From: Chloroflexia bacterium
Lineage (GTDB): Bacteria; Chloroflexota; Chloroflexia; QHBQ01; JADMIH01
DNA: 64,000 nucleotides
NCBI GenBank assembly: GCA_036399775.1
Contig: DASWMJ010000009.1
Span: 3,866-67,865, forward strand
Direction: 5' to 3'
Each line of letters starts with the position of its first letter. Position 1 is the stretch's first letter. This document shows positions 8,029 to 16,052 of this stretch, in pieces. The position numbers were made by a program, and so were the translations under genes. The notes below the pieces were generated by a model. The model saw nothing but the letters and a program-made list of their open reading frames with translations. It was not told where the DNA came from and did no database searches.

Positions 8029-9180
8029 ATGAAAAGTGGCGTGTTCAAGATCGTGACCATAGGGGGCGTGGACATCAAGGCCCATTGGAGTTGGCTGCTG
8101 ATCCTGCTCCTCTTCACCTACCAACTGGCTACCCTCTACTTCCCAAACGCGCTGCCCGGCGAGAGCGAGATTGTTTACCTGGCGCTGGGCCTGGTGGCCG
8201 CGCTCCTCCTGTTCGTGTCGGTGCTGGTACACGAGTTGAGCCATGCGTTCATGGCTCGCGCTCGCGGGTTGAAGGTGCGCGATATAGTGCTCTTTATCTT
8301 CGGCGGCGCGGCCAACATCGAACAGGAGCCCGAGAAGCCGGGGGACGAGTTCCTCATAGCGGTGGTCGGGCCGTTGACCAGTATAGCCCTTGCTGCCCTC
8401 TTCTACGGCCTGGCGCTCATTGTTGACCCACCCATGAGGCGGGCGGGAGCATTCGCGGCCTCCGTCCTACAATACCTGGCCTTTATCAACTTCATGCTGG
8501 CACTGTTTAACATGATACCCGGCTTCCCCCTGGACGGCGGGCGCGTGCTGCGCTCCATAATCTGGGGCGTGACCCGAAACTTCCAGTCAGCCACGCGCAT
8601 TGCGGGCTTCTTCGGCCAAATGGTAGCTTATGGCTTTATCTTCCTGGGCCTTTACCAAACCTTCTTCCAGGGTGGCTTCGACGTGAGTGGGCTGTGGCTG
8701 GCCTTTATCGGCTGGTTCCTCCTGAACGCCACCCAGCAGAGCGTGGCAGGCTCTACCATACGCAATATCACACGCGGTATCACCGTAGCCCAGGTTATGC
8801 AGCAAGCCCCAACTATGGTTGCGCCCCACTATACGCTGGCGCATCTGCTTACACAATTTATGCTCCCCTACAACCTCCGCGCGATGCCCGTAGGCCAGGA
8901 AGGCAGGCTTGAGGGCATAGTCACCCAGAGCGACATCAAGGACGTGCCGCAAGACCAGTGGGGCATCGTCACGGTGGGCAATGTGATGACGGCAGGCGAC
9001 AATCTGCGCACGGTAAGCCCTCAGGACGGCCTGGAACGCGCCATGCAGCTACTAAGCGAAGGTGATTTCGACCAATTGCCGGTGGTAGACAATCTCGGCA
9101 AGCTGGTAGGCATGCTCTCCCGCGCCCACGTCCTGCGCTGGCTCCAAATCAGGGACGAGTTGAAGATGCGTGAAACGTAA
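8029..9180 (+). CDS. Site-2 protease family (M50) zinc metallopeptidase with C-terminal CBS domain pair
   Basis: HExxH in VLVHELSHAFMARARG; multi-TM core. C-terminal region ...PVGQEGRLEGIVTQSDI...LPVVDNLGKLVGMLSRAHVLRWL is typical of CBS pairs. Confidence 0.85.
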   Translation: MKSGVFKIVTIGGVDIKAHWSWLLILLLFTYQLATLYFPNALPGESEIVYLALGLVAALLLFVSVLVHELSHAFMARARGLKVRDIVLFIFGGAANIEQEPEKPGDEFLIAVVGPLTSIALAALFYGLALIVDPPMRRAGAFAASVLQYLAFINFMLALFNMIPGFPLDGGRVLRSIIWGVTRNFQSATRIAGFFGQMVAYGFIFLGLYQTFFQGGFDVSGLWLAFIGWFLLNATQQSVAGSTIRNITRGITVAQVMQQAPTMVAPHYTLAHLLTQFMLPYNLRAMPVGQEGRLEGIVTQSDIKDVPQDQWGIVTVGNVMTAGDNLRTVSPQDGLERAMQLLSEGDFDQLPVVDNLGKLVGMLSRAHVLRWLQIRDELKMRET

Positions 9181-9181
9181 A

Positions 9182-9236
9182 ACGTCAAGATGGCATGTGC
9201 TCCGGTAGGGTAAGCCAGACTTCGCCTGCGGGGAGG
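9182..9236. repeat. Direct repeat DR1-left: displaced copy of the 3' end of gene 10564..11487
   Basis: acgtcaagatggcatgtgctccggtagggtaagccagacttcgcctgcggggagg aligns with 10561-10616 (6 substitutions plus 1 indel). On the minus strand it still encodes PAGEVWLTLPEHMPS-stop. Confidence 0.8.
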
Positions 9237-9335
9237 ACTTGGCAGTTGTAGGCTCGTCATGTGAAATTACAGCGGAGTATGCCACTTGAATAAACGCCAA
9301 GTTGCAGTTTTTCTGGCCGTTTCCGATGAGAATAG

Positions 9336-10388
9336 CTATGAGCCGAGTTTGCCGTAGGCCTTAAGAATACGATATGTATCTTTACCGTCTATAAAGCAGT
9401 AGTAACGTGGCTGATAGGCATATCGAGCCAATGCCGCAAGTACATGTCTAACCTTATGATCAATATCATGGGCATGTTGGACGATCAACAAATCCGCTTG
9501 CACAGTTGCTAATCTATAGAGCTGGTCATTGGCCTTACCCTGATTGCTACTCAATGTCATAGGGCTAAAACGGGCAGGACCCTTCAGTAAGAACGCTGCT
9601 GTAACTCTCTTGCCTCCAATATGCAAAGCAGGAGTGAAGTGATCCATTTGTTCGCCTCCCCAGTCTTTACCAGTTGTATCTCCAAGCAAATCAGCTAATC
9701 TCGCCTTTATAACCTTCTCTGGCAGGTTCTTCATTTGAGATTGCCAAACAGCTAATGCAGGCGGCATTATCTTTCGACACTCACTAAACTCATCTATATT
9801 TTCTGCATGGATCTCGAATGTTTCGTAGCCAGGCCATATAACTGAATAGTCTAAATCGTGATGAGCAGAGTTATGGGTAACGACAGGCAAGCCGATCACT
9901 AAAGGCTGGATGACCACTTGCTTCTCATCAAAACTGTGTATCCGTCCTATGATTGAAACAGGTGCGCCTTCAGTCAACAAGACTCTCATGGTGGTTGATA
10001 CAAAATGCTCTGGACTGAAATCTAGAATTATAGTACGTGCATCGTATACCTGTCCAATGACCTTTTGTATGCGCTCGTTATCTGATCTGAGTTTTCCAGG
10101 TGCCACACGCTCCAAACTTGCGAATACCGTCCCCTCCCGCAGGTCATGAAGAACGGCAGCTAGTGTGGGAATACGCTTATTACGACACTTGGCAAGAACA
10201 CGATCAGACAAGAACACGCTTCTGCTCTTTACACCGAAAGGGTCGGTAAGTAGGAGCAACGCAGGGAACCGAAGAGTAATCTCAGCAATTATAGAAGGTC
10301 CAATGAACGACATACACATCCGCTCATTAAGAAATCCAGGATCAACATTTACCTCATATCCATCTGAACCAAAGAGCACTCTTATCAC
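9336..10388 (-). CDS. Hypothetical protein, cargo of low-GC islet 1 (no family recognised; C-terminal region with clustered D/E/H/K residues, possibly nuclease-like)
   Basis: 350-aa ORF in clearly AT-richer DNA, GTG start (alternative GTG at 10379 has a GAGGTG RBS). Its own ~170-bp AT-rich upstream region is 10389-10560. C-terminus ...GKDWGGEQMDHFTPALHIGGKRVTAAFLLKG...LLIVQHAHDIDHKVRH.... Confidence 0.65.
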   Translation of the reverse strand: MIRVLFGSDGYEVNVDPGFLNERMCMSFIGPSIIAEITLRFPALLLLTDPFGVKSRSVFLSDRVLAKCRNKRIPTLAAVLHDLREGTVFASLERVAPGKLRSDNERIQKVIGQVYDARTIILDFSPEHFVSTTMRVLLTEGAPVSIIGRIHSFDEKQVVIQPLVIGLPVVTHNSAHHDLDYSVIWPGYETFEIHAENIDEFSECRKIMPPALAVWQSQMKNLPEKVIKARLADLLGDTTGKDWGGEQMDHFTPALHIGGKRVTAAFLLKGPARFSPMTLSSNQGKANDQLYRLATVQADLLIVQHAHDIDHKVRHVLAALARYAYQPRYYCFIDGKDTYRILKAYGKLGS

Positions 10389-10560
10389 CTCACAGTTGCA
10401 GAACTGCGACTAAAACACAGATGGGTGCATTTAAGGCTCCCATACCACAAGTAGAATCAGAATATCCTATATGGTTGTGCCGAAGATGGGATGCGAACTC
10501 ACAGTTATGCTAGATATAAGCAATCGACAAGACACCCTTCCATGATGAGGTGTCTGCCCC

Positions 10561-10616
10561 ACGTCAAGACGGCATATGCTCCGGCAGGGTGAGCCACACC
10601 TCGCCTGCGGGGGAGG
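10561..10616. repeat. Direct repeat DR1-right: functional 3' end of gene 10564..11487
   Basis: acgtcaagacggcatatgctccggcagggtgagccacacctcgcctgcgggggagg; partner of 9182-9236. Confidence 0.8.
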
Positions 10617-11487
10617 GCTTGCTGCGAGGAGTGAGGCCGGGGCCGCCTAGCACTCTAATGGCTAGTAGAGTGCCGTCCTGGAGCATTTCTTCCACTACCC
10701 TCTCGGTCACGCCTGGGTCCCAGCCGAATAGGCGCGGGAAGATGTGGGAGGGCGCGCCCACCGAGGTATGGAGGTATCGCTCTATCAGGTAGCGCATGGC
10801 GGCGCGGCTGTTGTACTGGCGGGCCTGCTCCGCCAGGTTGGGCGCCCACCTGAGCAGCAGGTCGTAGATGTAGCAGTATTTCCACCTGTTCGAGTCGGAG
10901 ATGCCCGCCTTCACTATCTTGAGGTCGCCCTGTAGCTCCACTATGGCGCGCTCGAAGCGGCGAGCGTTATCTCCCCCACCTCCCATGCCGCAAGCCTTCC
11001 TCATCGCGCTGGTGGGCATAGGCCCTTCCCTCAGCAGCGTTTCGTAGACCAGTTTGGCCTCCACGCTCATCATTCCGTCCGCGTAGGCTTCCAGGTAGTC
11101 GTCAATCTCCCCGTAGTTGGAGGAGAGAGCGTAGACCGCAGGCAGATCGCGCATCGAGATGAAGGCGGGCTTTCCCCGGATTATCTTGCCGTACCATGCC
11201 TCCTTGCGCTCCGGTATCTTGTCTTTCCAGTCCCAGGTCTTGTGGAGGGCGTAGTCGTGGTGGTGCTTGGGCAGCTTGCGCTCGCAGCCGTTGATGGCGC
11301 TCCACAGGTCGGGGAGGGGCAGCCTATCGCCCGGAAAGAGGAGGGCGATACCTACGTCGTTGATGAATTTCACCGCTTCACCCTGCGTCTTCACCTTGAA
11401 ATCGGGGTGCATGCGGTAGCGCGGCAGGCGCACGTCGAGTATATGCGTGTAATGGAAGACAGGTAGGGAAACAGGTTCAGCTAGCAT
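10564..11487 (-). CDS. Conserved hypothetical protein (307 aa)
   Basis: Long ORF with typical high-GC codon usage. Overlaps the downstream EamA gene start by 11 nt, so operonic. No family recognised with confidence. Confidence 0.6.
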   Translation of the reverse strand: MLAEPVSLPVFHYTHILDVRLPRYRMHPDFKVKTQGEAVKFINDVGIALLFPGDRLPLPDLWSAINGCERKLPKHHHDYALHKTWDWKDKIPERKEAWYGKIIRGKPAFISMRDLPAVYALSSNYGEIDDYLEAYADGMMSVEAKLVYETLLREGPMPTSAMRKACGMGGGGDNARRFERAIVELQGDLKIVKAGISDSNRWKYCYIYDLLLRWAPNLAEQARQYNSRAAMRYLIERYLHTSVGAPSHIFPRLFGWDPGVTERVVEEMLQDGTLLAIRVLGGPGLTPRSKPSPAGEVWLTLPEHMPS

Positions 11488-12499: not shown

Positions 12500-12619
12500 G
12501 AGCCAATTATAACTGAGAACACATGGGCTAATCCAGGGGACATATCGCTTGCAAAGTGGGATGTTGTGGAATATAATCAGCCTGTGGGACTGTTATGGTT
12601 CCGGCCAGGAGGCATCATT

Positions 12620-13618
12620 ATGAAAACGACGAAAGTCAGAGAGAAGGTTGCCGAGCAGCCGCCGGTGGCTGAGGAGGATGAGCCACGAAAGGAGAGGGCG
12701 GTGCAGGCGGCGCTCTTCACGCTCAACGGGAGGGGGGAGCTTACCGACCCCGTAGCCGACATCCCGGCGCTCGGCCCATCTTCCAGCCTGGACGTGGCGC
12801 GCTGGTGGTACAAGCGCCACCTAGAGCAGCAGAAGCGGCCCATCAACACGATAGACTCCTATATGTACGACCTTGCGCTCTTCCAGGAGTCGCTTGGCAA
12901 CAAGACGCTCGACCGGGTGAACAACACCGACATAGCGAACTTCCTGGGGCAGGCGAACAACAAGTCTACCCGCAAGCGGCGGCTTACCTCCTTGCAGGGC
13001 ATGTACCGCTACCTGGTGAACAAAGAGAAGATACTGCCCAAGAACCCCTGCGACAGCTTCTTCCCCGACTACATCCCCCTCAAGACGCCGCGCACCCTCT
13101 TCCCGCAAGAGCAGGACGCTATGCTTGAGGCCGCCCGCGACGAGAACTCGCGCACTTACCTGATCGTGTACCTGCTGCTGAAGCTGGGGCTGACGCGCAC
13201 CGAACTGCTCGCGCTGAAGGTAGACCACATAGACGTGAGCAACCCCGACCAGCCCATCGTCTACATTTACTATGACGAGATACGCTGGCAGCCGAAGGAG
13301 CGCAAGCTGGCGGCGGATGCCGAGTTCACCGATGCCTTCCTGCGGTACGTGGAGGAATACAGCCCGGTAGCGCGCATGTTCAATCTGCTGCCCCAGTCCA
13401 TCAACAAGATAGTGGACCGTATAGCCGAGGCCGCAGGGATAGGCAAGACGGTGACGCCCCAATCCCTGCGCGATACCTTCGCCGTTGAGCAGGCGAAGAT
13501 CGGGGCCGACGAAAAGAAGCTGCTGCTAATACTGGGCCTCGCGCCCGACAGCCGCAACCGCAAGAGCGTGCAGAGGTACATGAAGCTGGCCGCCCCGCCC
13601 GTCGCTGGCGTGGTGTGA
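12620..13618 (+). CDS. Tyrosine-type site-specific recombinase/integrase (divergent active-site residues)
   Basis: GGAGG RBS then ATG at 12620. N-terminal SAM-like core-binding region (WWYKRHLEQQKRPINTIDSYMYDLALFQESL). Catalytic-domain motifs LTRTELLALKVDHIDV (Arg-I), QSLRDTFAV (HxLRH box with H->Q and H->D), LGLAPDSRNRKSVQRYMKL (Tyr). Confidence 0.75.
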   Translation: MKTTKVREKVAEQPPVAEEDEPRKERAVQAALFTLNGRGELTDPVADIPALGPSSSLDVARWWYKRHLEQQKRPINTIDSYMYDLALFQESLGNKTLDRVNNTDIANFLGQANNKSTRKRRLTSLQGMYRYLVNKEKILPKNPCDSFFPDYIPLKTPRTLFPQEQDAMLEAARDENSRTYLIVYLLLKLGLTRTELLALKVDHIDVSNPDQPIVYIYYDEIRWQPKERKLAADAEFTDAFLRYVEEYSPVARMFNLLPQSINKIVDRIAEAAGIGKTVTPQSLRDTFAVEQAKIGADEKKLLLILGLAPDSRNRKSVQRYMKLAAPPVAGVV

Positions 13619-13704
13619 TTTTCGGTTTCAGCAGCTTCTTTCAAGCATGCGGAGTAGTGTAGAATATAGCTTGGTCATAAATCGCCACAATACAGGGGGC
13701 AACC

Positions 13705-14112
13705 ATGCACTGGCTAGCGATTGTACTCGTCTTAACTCCGGTGATTCTGTTGTGCGCACACTGCATCCTGGCCAATAGAATCGGAAGAAATAGAAGTTTC
13801 TTTTCGATCTTGGCAGGGTTGTTAGGATTGACGGTTGTTACTACTTTAACTTGGGTAGGCTCATCTTACGCGGCTGCGTACTTTGTTTTTCAAACTCGTG
13901 AACCCAAACAACAAACTCTGCTTGATGTGTTTGATAAGACATTATCATTGCCCTTCTATCTGTTCCCTCAGGCTCCGATTCTACAATCCTTCTTAGGTCT
14001 GCCGCCAATGAACGTAGCGAGTGTTCTGCTATTGCCTTCTGTTCTGTTAATACTGGGTTTAGTTTTTGCTACCATTCGAGTTCCAAGGCGCATAGCGAGA
14101 GTGCAGGCATAG
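13705..14112 (+). CDS. Small hypothetical membrane protein in a low-GC patch
   Basis: 135 aa, 3-4 hydrophobic helices. Surrounding DNA 13640-14180 is AT-richer than the flanks. Confidence 0.45.
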   Translation: MHWLAIVLVLTPVILLCAHCILANRIGRNRSFFSILAGLLGLTVVTTLTWVGSSYAAAYFVFQTREPKQQTLLDVFDKTLSLPFYLFPQAPILQSFLGLPPMNVASVLLLPSVLLILGLVFATIRVPRRIARVQA

Positions 14113-14187
14113 CGTCTTGCATGAAATTTGAAATGAAATTGTTGCTTGGGTGTCTGTATTTGGATGTTGGAGCTGTGAGTTAGCCAT

Positions 14188-14643
14188 ATGAGTAACGTTA
14201 CCGGGGAGGATAAGCGCGAAATCTCGCATACCTTTCGTGTTCGCTATGCGGAGACCGACGCTATGGGGATCGTGCATCACAGCAGCTACGTCATATGGCT
14301 GGAGATGGGGCGCACCGAGTTCATGCGCGCTTTCGGTTTCACATACAGGGAGCTTGAGGAGATGGGGGTGGTGATGCCTGTGCTTGAGATAGGCGTCCGC
14401 TACAGGCAGCCCGCCTACTACGACGACGAGCTACGCATCTCTACCTGGGTTGACGAGTTGAGCCGCACCAAAATCAAGCTGGCCTATAAGATAGTCCGCA
14501 CCTCCGACGGTAAGCTGCTGACCGAGGGCTTCTCCCTGCACACCTTCACCGGGCACGATGGCAGGCTCATCAGGATAACCCACCACCTCGAAGCCTGGTC
14601 GCGCCTGCGGGCGATGTCCCCACACCTGGATGTCAAGGAATAG
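14188..14643 (+). CDS. Acyl-CoA thioesterase, 4HBT/YbgC family
   Basis: ISHTFRVRYAETDAMGIVHHSSYVIWLEMGRTEFMRAFGF is the hotdog-fold thioesterase N-terminal signature. Confidence 0.8.
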   Translation: MSNVTGEDKREISHTFRVRYAETDAMGIVHHSSYVIWLEMGRTEFMRAFGFTYRELEEMGVVMPVLEIGVRYRQPAYYDDELRISTWVDELSRTKIKLAYKIVRTSDGKLLTEGFSLHTFTGHDGRLIRITHHLEAWSRLRAMSPHLDVKE

Positions 14644-14702
14644 GCTTTCGCGGCAGGGTCACATAAGACAGAAAAGACGGAACCACAAAGACACAAGCTA
14701 CA

Positions 14703-14752
14703 AACATGATGCAAGCCCGAAATATAGAATTCGGGCTTGCATCATGTTTACG
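14703..14752 (+). terminator. Terminator-like hairpin
   Basis: 19-bp perfect stem aacatgatgcaagcccgaa / ttcgggcttgcatcatgtt with an 8-nt loop, then tta. Confidence 0.55.
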
Positions 14753-14999
14753 CTCACCCAACTACATCTCCCCTATTCGAGAGGAATGTTCAAGAGAAGA
14801 AAACAGGCGGCGCAGTAGCCTGTTTTCTTCTTTAACTAATGATTTTACACTTGCCAACAGAGAAATATAAACATTTGAAATTTCACCTTGCCTAAATTGT
14901 GTATTGACAATATAAGAAATGGGATATATAATGAGGTATAATTTAGACTAGCCTAAAAATCACTACCGATTATGTACCGGGGTGTTGGAGATCATCAGA

Positions 15000-16052
15000 A
15001 TGGCGAAAGATACTTTATCACGGAGAGGATTCCTGCGGATGGGCGCAATAGGTATGGCTAGCATCGCCAGCCTGCCCGTGTTGGACAGATTAGCGCCTGG
15101 CAAGGCCCAGGCCCATCTCGCGACGCCTGTAGTTGAAAACGCGCATAAACCTGCCCATGCAGGGCGCTTCCAGCAGGATGCTCACGGCAACCACAACCAA
15201 TCTACCGTCGGGGACGTTGACACATCTCGTTTCGATCCGATGGAGTTCCTCACCAATTTCGATTATGGCACGACCAGCACCTTACCGAACGGGCAGACCC
15301 TGCGGGAATGGACGGTAATCGCCGGTGATGTTGAGATCGAGGTAGCGCCCGGCGTGTACTTCGCGGCCTGGGCGTATAACGGGCAGGTGCCCGGCCCCAC
15401 TTTCCGGTGCGTAGAGGGAGATCGCCTGCGCTTTACCTTCCTCAATGGATCGGTCCACCCTCACACCATACACTTCCATGGGATACACCCGCCCAGCATG
15501 GACGGCGTAGACCCACAGGTTATGCCGGGGGGCACATTCGTATACGAGTTCGACGCCGACCCTTTCGGTATGCACCTGTATCATTGCCACTCTGTACCGC
15601 TAGCCCGGCACATCCACAAGGGGCTGTACGGAAACTTCATCATTGATCCTCCCGGTGGCCGTCCTCCGGCGAAGGAGTTCTCGATGGTGATAAACGCGTT
15701 CGACACCAACTTTGATGGCGGGAACGAAGTGTACGCTGTCAATACGGTAGCATTTCACTATATGAAGCACCCTATCAAAGTGAAGGTGGGTGAGTTGGTC
15801 CGTATCTACGTATCCAACGTCACCGAGTTTGACCTTGTAAACTCGTTCCACTTGCATTCCGGCATGTACAAGCTCTACCGCACAGGCACCAGCCTTACAC
15901 AGTACGAATATACCGACAACGTGCTGATGAGCCAGGGTGACCGGCATATTATAGAGTTCACGCTGAAGTACCCCGGCAAATATATGTTCCACGCTCACCA
16001 AACAGAGTTCACCGAGCTTGGGTGGATGGGCTTCTTTGAAGCGGAAGCGTAA
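15000..16052 (+). CDS. Tat-secreted multicopper oxidase / cupredoxin-domain protein (NirK-like two-domain type)
   Basis: Twin-arginine signal SRRGFLRMGAIGMASIASL. Copper-ligand motifs HTIHFHGIH, HCHSV..H and MFHAHQTEF. Confidence 0.8.
   Translation: MAKDTLSRRGFLRMGAIGMASIASLPVLDRLAPGKAQAHLATPVVENAHKPAHAGRFQQDAHGNHNQSTVGDVDTSRFDPMEFLTNFDYGTTSTLPNGQTLREWTVIAGDVEIEVAPGVYFAAWAYNGQVPGPTFRCVEGDRLRFTFLNGSVHPHTIHFHGIHPPSMDGVDPQVMPGGTFVYEFDADPFGMHLYHCHSVPLARHIHKGLYGNFIIDPPGGRPPAKEFSMVINAFDTNFDGGNEVYAVNTVAFHYMKHPIKVKVGELVRIYVSNVTEFDLVNSFHLHSGMYKLYRTGTSLTQYEYTDNVLMSQGDRHIIEFTLKYPGKYMFHAHQTEFTELGWMGFFEAEA

Follow-up and report, generated by a model that had tools for sequence, protein, structure and literature searches.

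Between two convergent housekeeping genes in a Chloroflexia genome lies an islet of low GC content carrying a single gene, which raises the question of what the encoded protein is, how its gene reached this position, and what it may do there. The initial annotation, made from the letters of the whole stretch of DNA analyzed here (64,000 nucleotides, referred to as the window), described an open reading frame (ORF) for a protein of no recognizable family, regarded its C-terminal third as compatible with a PD-(D/E)xK-like nuclease fold, and placed it in an att-flanked insert of the kind that frequently holds defense genes.

The islet gene and its family

The ORF at 9336..10388 on the minus strand (350 aa counted from the first GTG in the ORF list) was confirmed, and the two peptides quoted in the initial annotation are both present in its translation. 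The length of 350 aa holds for the ORF as listed, but the protein itself is likely 347 aa long: on the coding strand, GAGG (10391-10388) is located 8 nt before a second GTG at 10379, nothing comparable was found in the stretch upstream of the first GTG, and the public gene call on the contig (P0001) comprises 347 aa with 100% identity to the ORF product. The gene therefore probably starts at the second GTG, 9 nt later than in the ORF list, and the probable real coding sequence is 9336-10379 (minus strand).

A word-indexed search returned at least 344 homologues, with E-values down to 1e-75 and 35-43% identity, nearly all of them 345-370 aa in length and all labeled 'hypothetical protein' or unnamed. 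These E-values were obtained outside its own contig, and with so many homologues the ORF is no chance one; it is real and intact. In a HMMER scan with the full profile against 1.84 billion cluster representatives, 1,203 clusters were found at E ≤ 1e-3 and 476 at E ≤ 1e-30, the resulting family size of approximately 1,200 being a count of clusters at 50% identity. A scan with one genome per species identified relatives in 376 of 185,579 genomes (~0.2%), distributed over more than 12 phyla, including Planctomycetota, Alpha- and Gammaproteobacteria, Cyanobacteria, Actinomycetota, Bacteroidota, Acidobacteriota, Gemmatimonadota, Verrucomicrobiota, Nitrospirota, Myxococcota, Chloroflexota, and others. 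Sequenced plasmids and phages hardly ever carry a member (2 of 72,556 and 1 of 50,697, respectively).

That the protein belongs to no recognizable family was borne out by all searches. The window protein yielded zero matches against Pfam, NCBIfam, PADLOC, PHROGs, and all PDB sequences (phmmer), and nothing meaningful was obtained with each of 40 aligned members against Pfam or with the family profile against PDB (hmmsearch); against Pfam nuclease models, including those of the Mrr type, the 40 members did not reach even E=5. The HMM search proposed as a check in the initial annotation thus gave no confident match to any housekeeping enzyme family. On these sequence comparisons, the window gene is a member of a large family that is both unnamed and unannotated.

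The window copy agrees with the family at 54 of the 61 positions conserved in at least 90% of members, with every candidate catalytic residue among them, and deviates by I15V, H58V, D197N, I290L, T316V, R318A, and P324A. Among the 40 aligned members, only one is more divergent, and its closest relative outside its own contig shares 43% identity. The copy looks intact, possibly with an altered specificity of the presumed reader domain described below. A scan for a sigma-70 promoter and a terminator around the gene revealed nothing convincing.

The genomic contexts of the homologues were compared as well. Among neighboring ORFs of at least 90 aa within 6 kb (87 loci), none recurs in more than six loci, and the sole six-locus cluster is a generic ABC transporter. 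Among ORFs of 35-200 aa within 900 bp (85 loci), the largest shared cluster comes from three closely related cyanobacteria, and the conserved small partner gene that marks a toxin-antitoxin pair was not found. With no conserved neighbor, the family acts as a one-gene unit. A solitary gene without a cognate methyltransferase is the rule in the main clade and in the window insert, the exception being a branch located beside type III Mod genes. The GC content of the homologous genes is lower than that of their flanks by a median of 7 points, and by more than 5 points in 38 of 62 loci; this offset in most hosts indicates repeated recent transfer.

About half of the Pfam-annotated contexts (n=10) are defense islands or mobile elements. 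They include CBASS SMODS and S_4TM genes together with a DNA methylase, an HD protein, and a ResIII helicase; a type III Cmr CRISPR cassette; AAA_21/AAA_15 ATPase and radical-SAM genes; a conjugative element with a DUF499 gene; and transposases adjoining the homologue. The remaining contexts are ordinary housekeeping neighborhoods. Conserved metabolic operons, in which the initial annotation had seen a counter-argument, accounted for none of the ten. Only 2 of ~90 loci lie near signal-generating systems, and the majority of copies stand alone.

Two loci showed peculiarities of their own. In Parvibaculum sp. (L003:8001-10069; identical in 15 contigs), the start of the homologue overlaps the stop of a MiaB/MtaB-like radical-SAM housekeeping gene (ATGA-type) and the homologue is followed by ~1 kb with no called gene; its GC content is 14.5 points under that of the flanks, and a flanking repeat was not found at this locus. 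In a Bacteroidales MAG (L057), copies of a 33-nt near-palindrome (AGACCTCAAAGGTTT...AAACCTTTGAGGTCT) are located on either side of the homologue, at ~9070-9105 and ~11127-11160; they look like a REP- or MITE-type element, not a target duplication.

A divergent branch of the family has the complete architecture and shares the invariant residues. In three genomes, its homologue is located inside a tight operon (L085:1452-12539, L080:2696-12786, and L083:1574-12927) in the order type III Res, a variable gene (GmrSD_N in L085), type III Mod (PADLOC MTase_III, E 8e-301), the homologue, and a GajB-like UvrD helicase. Adjoining genes of the operon abut or overlap at their stop and start codons, and the start of the UvrD helicase gene overlaps the stop of the homologue. 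The adjacent UvrD-family helicase was found in these three genomes only; neither the window nor the main clade has it. The operon may represent a distinct multi-gene defense system in which the protein is partnered with the helicase.

Insertion and target duplication at the AlkZ-related/M50 junction

Across 9200-10600, the GC content is 44-47%, compared with 58-64% in both flanks. A direct repeat of 52 nt (9182-9233 and 10561-10612; 88% identical, spacing 1379) surrounds the ORF and grows to 61 nt when one indel is allowed (9182-9241 and 10561-10621). The copy at 10561..10621 (minus strand) is the functional 3' end, comprising the last 18 codons and the stop, of an AlkZ-related (YcaQ-like) DNA glycosylase gene (10564-11487, minus strand; PF24741, E 2.6e-33), which was the insertion target. 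The copy at 9182..9241 (minus strand) is an orphan duplicate of this 3' end and abuts the stop of a convergent gene encoding an M50 peptidase with CBS domains (8029..9180, plus strand; Pfam). The inserted DNA between the repeats (9242..10560) measures 1,319 bp, has ~45% GC, and contains one gene and no recombinase gene.

Of the description as a single-gene, low-GC, att-flanked insert, the single gene, the low GC content, and the flanking repeats hold, but the repeats are not integrase att sites, since they are a duplicated 3' end of the neighboring gene and the ORF list contains no integrase or recombinase ORF between them. A tyrosine recombinase gene at 12566-13618 was considered as the integrase of the islet and rejected, because its position is outside the repeats and a related locus (L098) without the islet has it in synteny. 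This gene (plus strand), 2 kb off the islet, shows weak Phage_integrase and SAM-like N-domain matches and normal GC content; it belongs to the conserved synteny, being next to EamA in L098, and is probably Xer-like. Just past it, the stretches 13600-14200 and 14600-15000 are also low in GC (42-46% vs ~60%), the former with an ORF for a predicted membrane protein of 135 aa (13705-14112), and may be further islets.

A search with the glycosylase identified a 98% identical orthologue in the Chloroflexia MAG GCA_035634225.1 (L097), which has the same gene order (EamA, AlkZ-related, slot, M50, LiaF-like, FtsK) at 87-90% nucleotide identity. There, the 3' end of the AlkZ-related gene occurs once, and therefore it was duplicated around the insert in the window. 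The slot in L097 is filled by a different cassette and so is not strictly empty. This cassette (L097:2190-2736, corresponding to window 9181-10563) comprises a gene for a 150-aa protein of the 23S_rRNA_IVP family (four-helix bundle), with inverted heptamer arrays at either end, one being (GTATTGC)x5 and the other (GCAATAC)x3. With two unrelated cassettes at the same tail-to-tail junction of the AlkZ-related and M50 genes, this site is an insertion hotspot. In the reconstructed empty site, the stop codons of the two genes lie 4 nt apart (TGA-CGTT-TTA), the junction reading ...CCGTCTTGACGTTTTACG....

Other differences among relatives were observed around the junction. In L098:6952-11391, where the AlkZ-related gene is 79% identical, a SAM-methyltransferase gene and toxin-antitoxin genes of the DUF433/DUF5615 and PhdYeFM types replace the M50 gene and sit between the AlkZ-related gene and FtsK; in this lineage, everything downstream of the AlkZ-related gene is variable. 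In L097, an EcoRV-family restriction endonuclease gene (PF09233; L097:7843-8189) starts just past FtsK. A metagenome scan for the empty site turned up only one candidate (L087), which was set aside because its downstream region is not syntenic.

The six differences within the 52-nt repeat core are all synonymous third-position changes, as if the orphan had evolved as coding sequence in a different lineage. With L097 as the outgroup, three of them fall on the gene copy, in which selection spares synonymous changes only, and three, all GC-to-AT, on the orphan, whose 5' extension carries in addition a non-synonymous first-position change and a 1-nt deletion (frameshift). On these grounds, we rejected a donor lineage as the source of the orphan repeat, in which case the islet would have arrived as a circle that held a copy of the gene end. 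A consistent synonymous bias was not seen in the repeats of other loci, and duplication followed by divergence is sufficient to explain the differences. An argument for purifying selection based on the intact ORF compared with the decayed orphan was dropped, as the events are too few (1 indel and 4 substitutions in 61 nt), and a hairpin that closely follows the AlkZ-related stop codon scored no better than shuffled sequence (z = -0.98).

In ~8 of 72 family loci, the gene is flanked by long, imperfect repeats of 19-149 nt that are specific to the locus; all of them score above the best of 58 control comparisons, and ~64 of 72 loci showed no detectable duplication. Where they could be assigned, the repeats of other loci are 3' or 5' ends of adjoining genes; a common motif among the duplicated sequences across loci was not found. 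'Insertion with long target duplication' has been described for type I-IV restriction genes, characterized by imperfect repeats of >30 bp, overlap with a gene 3' end, atypical GC content, and no mobility gene (Furuta, Abe and Kobayashi, 2010; PMC2853133). The islet resembles this class in its size (1,319 bp, with the class limit at <20 kb), its imperfect repeats of 52-61 nt overlapping the 3' end of the neighbor, its atypical GC content, the lack of mobility genes, and the single occurrence of the repeat at the same locus in L097, though the slot there holds another cassette. The pattern recurs in other loci of the family. The published class was defined on annotated restriction-modification genes, whereas a restriction function of the islet is itself something we infer.

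Predicted fold and candidate active center

A full-length AlphaFold model, with the alignment of 40 members (A1) as input, was confident (mean pLDDT 88, pTM 0.85) and consists of four parts. The N-terminal cap (residues 1-87; 10128..10388, minus strand), assigned from the secondary structure of this model, is composed of one strand and helices and bears the family motifs (H)HIDPGF.N.R and NDHL, partly diverged in the window copy (H58V). It is followed by an OB-fold beta-barrel (residues 88-172; 9873..10127, minus strand), presumed to be the nucleic-acid-binding reader domain, and by a linker of three helices (residues 186-239; 9672..9833, minus strand; EIFPEDIDEFS...EW..M..PE..VK), delimited by the model and the boundary seen in fusion proteins. 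The linker, in which E224 and K228 are invariant, begins a portable C-terminal module that ends with the restriction-endonuclease-fold core of the PD-(D/E)xK type (residues 240-350; 9339..9671, minus strand).

In structure comparison, the N-terminal part resembles OB-folds and not CARF, SAVED, or STAND sensors; Foldseek gave a weak OB signal and nothing else. The C-terminal part has the alpha/beta fold with a central mixed sheet and flanking helices that defines the PD-(D/E)xK superfamily core, and its nearest structures are non-specific cleavage modules that can be detached, as found in type IIS, type IV, and type ISP restriction enzymes and in defense effectors. The PD-(D/E)xK-like fold considered in the initial annotation is therefore supported at the fold level, and that interpretation as a whole is supported in part.

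The clustered acidic, His, and Lys residues pointed out in the C-terminal third correspond to the family-invariant D242, E246, D249, K269, Q304, H305, and H307. Altogether, D242, W243, G245, E246, D249, K269, G270, P271, D288, Q289, R292, Q304, H305, H307, C331, and G335 are invariant in the C-terminal module, and invariance over the ~1,200 clusters and differing architectures extends to more than 15 polar residues (D, E, K, Q, H, R). The candidate catalytic motif is non-canonical, D249-X17-L267-x-K269. In the model, D249 starts one strand and K269 ends the next strand of a hairpin, a placement that matches FokI D450 and K469 with similar spacing. At least 90% of members have a hydrophobic residue (L267) two positions before K269, where D/E/Q is canonical (D467 in FokI). 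Relocated acidic ligands occur elsewhere within the PD-(D/E)xK superfamily, in Cfr10I and NgoMIV. That so many polar residues are invariant is unusual and suggests that the active site is functional but rewired, in which case D242, E246, Q304, or H305 would contribute what L267 cannot. By the topology of the model, these four residues would be placed at the same sheet edge as D249 and K269, and this is the weakest link of the nuclease claim.

Neither the window protein nor any of the 40 aligned members matched a curated nuclease-family profile (Pfam, NCBIfam, PDB). A by-eye match to FokI ('DWGGExxD / HLGGSRKPD') was likewise unsupported at the sequence level: hhalign of the family profile against the FokI cleavage domain, whose sequence was checked to be identical to 1fok_A residues 381-576, gave a probability of 0.2%.

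The last ~160 residues, comprising the helices and the core, also follow N-terminal regions of unrelated kinds in proteins that are 286-753 aa long, and E224, D242, E246, D249, K269, Q289, R292, Q304, H305, and D334 are invariant in every such fusion. The occurrence of the module as a swappable effector behind unrelated N-termini fits a nuclease 'warhead'. In one fusion (P0162, 694 aa), an NCAB2 domain (NACHT C-terminal alpha/beta 2, PF22726) at 435-513 is directly followed by the module at 538-694, and no NACHT ATPase domain was detected upstream of NCAB2 at E<=0.01. The N-termini of three others (P0173, 753 aa; P0174, 625 aa; P0181, 517 aa) have no Pfam match.

Proposed function and relation to known systems

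Proceeding from the fold, the family, the solitary state of the gene, and its insertion with target duplication, we infer nuclease activity, a DNA substrate, a defense role, and discrimination between self and non-self. The best explanation, to which we assign a probability of about 0.5, is that the islet gene encodes a self-contained, modular restriction-type endonuclease and constitutes a mobile one-gene defense or selfish unit. The N-terminal cap and the OB-fold barrel would read a nucleic-acid feature, and the C-terminal FokI/MspJI/Mrr-like PD-(D/E)xK module would cut the bound nucleic acid via D249 and K269, assisted by the family-specific invariants D242, E246, Q304, and H305. Because no methyltransferase, immunity gene, or conserved partner accompanies the gene, the sparing of self-DNA would have to lie in recognition by the reader, for example of a modification or structure that marks invading DNA, in the manner of type IV restriction. 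In its behavior, the gene is a horizontally mobile unit of a defensive or selfish kind, and in the window it entered the 4-nt gap between the convergent housekeeping genes, duplicating 61 nt of target.

Alternatively, the protein could be an abortive-infection effector activated by infection or a signal, comparable to Avs, Cap4, NucC, or Can2-type effectors, in which detection of a phage protein, a nucleotide signal, or a replication intermediate by the cap and OB-fold unleashes an indiscriminate nuclease, and the cell dies or is arrested. The scarcity of loci near signal-generating systems (2 of ~90, most copies being alone), an N-terminal part that matches OB-folds instead of CARF, SAVED, or STAND sensors, and the lack of an ATPase domain make this rather unlikely. 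The behavior of the gene may also be mainly selfish and homing-like, its own cuts allowing insertion with long target duplication at little or no benefit to the host. Such behavior has already been proposed for restriction genes (PMC2853133), and it would agree with the long, locus-specific duplications in ~8 of 72 loci whose inserts lack a recombinase, with insertion points that are often gene ends, and with the two cassettes found at the same junction in two close relatives. As ~64 of 72 loci have no detectable duplication, the copy number is not expanded (one copy in the 64-kb window), and the duplicated sequences share no motif pointing to a homing site, we regard it as improbable as the main explanation, although it is compatible with the restriction-nuclease reading.

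That the protein is an inactive DNA-binding protein or a decaying remnant, with the PD-(D/E)xK scaffold serving only binding or oligomerization, is suggested by the invariant Leu or other hydrophobic residue in place of the canonical D/E/Q of (D/E/Q)xK, by the divergence of the window copy, and by the failure to detect a promoter and terminator. An invariant polar set of this size over so many clusters and several architectures is, however, typical of an active site, the ORF has stayed intact while the adjoining orphan repeat is already frameshifted, and relocated acidic ligands have precedents in the superfamily; inactivity is thus quite improbable. A role as a housekeeping repair or recombination nuclease, for example of the NucS/EndoMS type, is very improbable for a family present in ~0.2% of species and scattered across phyla, with atypical GC content in most hosts and no conserved synteny, and a 98%-related genome (L097) lacks the gene at this locus; the glycosylase gene next to it is merely the target of the insertion. 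Least credible is a toxin, either of a toxin-antitoxin pair or a polymorphic-toxin nuclease: a conserved adjoining small ORF was not found in 85 loci, and the 1,319-bp insert holds one gene and no secretion or delivery domain.

Under the restriction-nuclease reading, the fold superfamily and the design of a reader plus a cleavage module are already well known. New are the unannotated family, the OB-type reader, the non-canonical active site, the lack of a detectable sequence link to known families, and the recurrent signature of long target duplication. A more far-reaching version, which we put forward tentatively and hold to be unlikely rather than likely, is a new class of single-protein restriction in which an OB-fold reader (not SRA, winged-helix, or methyl-binding) is joined to a FokI-like module with a rewired site (D...LxK plus Asp/Glu/His), reads a feature of the invader (a base modification, for instance, or replication intermediates that are single-stranded), and owes its spread into gene-end junctions by long target duplication to its own nuclease. 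If the restriction-nuclease reading is true, a compact family of one-gene defense nucleases of ~1 kb, with ~1,200 clusters, is missing from Pfam, NCBIfam, PADLOC, and PHROGs, and combines a type of reader domain not used by known type IV enzymes with an atypical PD-(D/E)xK active site. As FokI and MspJI, which are likewise built from a reader and a cleavage module, became useful tools, a new reader specificity may be of practical interest. The family would also supply several fresh and clear cases of restriction-type genes that inserted with a long target duplication and without a recombinase, including a junction occupied by different cassettes in two near-identical genomes. Should the protein be inactive or act outside defense, the finding would shrink to yet another orphan gene located in an islet.

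Compared with known systems, the protein shares with NucS/EndoMS an N-terminal barrel followed by a C-terminal PD-(D/E)xK domain but differs in having neither the vertical, clade-wide distribution nor a close structural match. AF1548 (PDB 1y88) and Mrr-type catalytic domains share 10-11% sequence identity with it in structural alignment. The defense nuclease effectors Hna, Avs4, Upx, Hachiman HamA, and Gabija differ from the main clade, which has no helicase or ATPase partner, and PADLOC gave no matches for the islet protein. In Gabija-like pairs, the nuclease adjoins a UvrD helicase, whereas no helicase adjoins the window gene; GajA is an ATPase-Toprim protein and not a PD-(D/E)xK enzyme. Among cleavage modules, FokI (type IIS), N.BspD6I/R.BspD6I, and the nuclease domain of LlaBIII (type ISP) were compared. 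The equivalent of FokI D467 is Leu in the islet family, which has the additional invariant residues Q304, H305, and H307 and, in its main clade, no companion methyltransferase. MspJI/AspBHI enzymes use an SRA-like (PUA-type) base-flipping reader and the motif D-X20-QxK, whereas the islet protein has an OB-fold with a helical cap, and no SRA-like domain, and its family has D-X17-LxK; sequence similarity between the two was not detectable in Pfam and PDB searches. What the main clade has in common with the MspJI/AspBHI type is the solitary gene working without a cognate methyltransferase.
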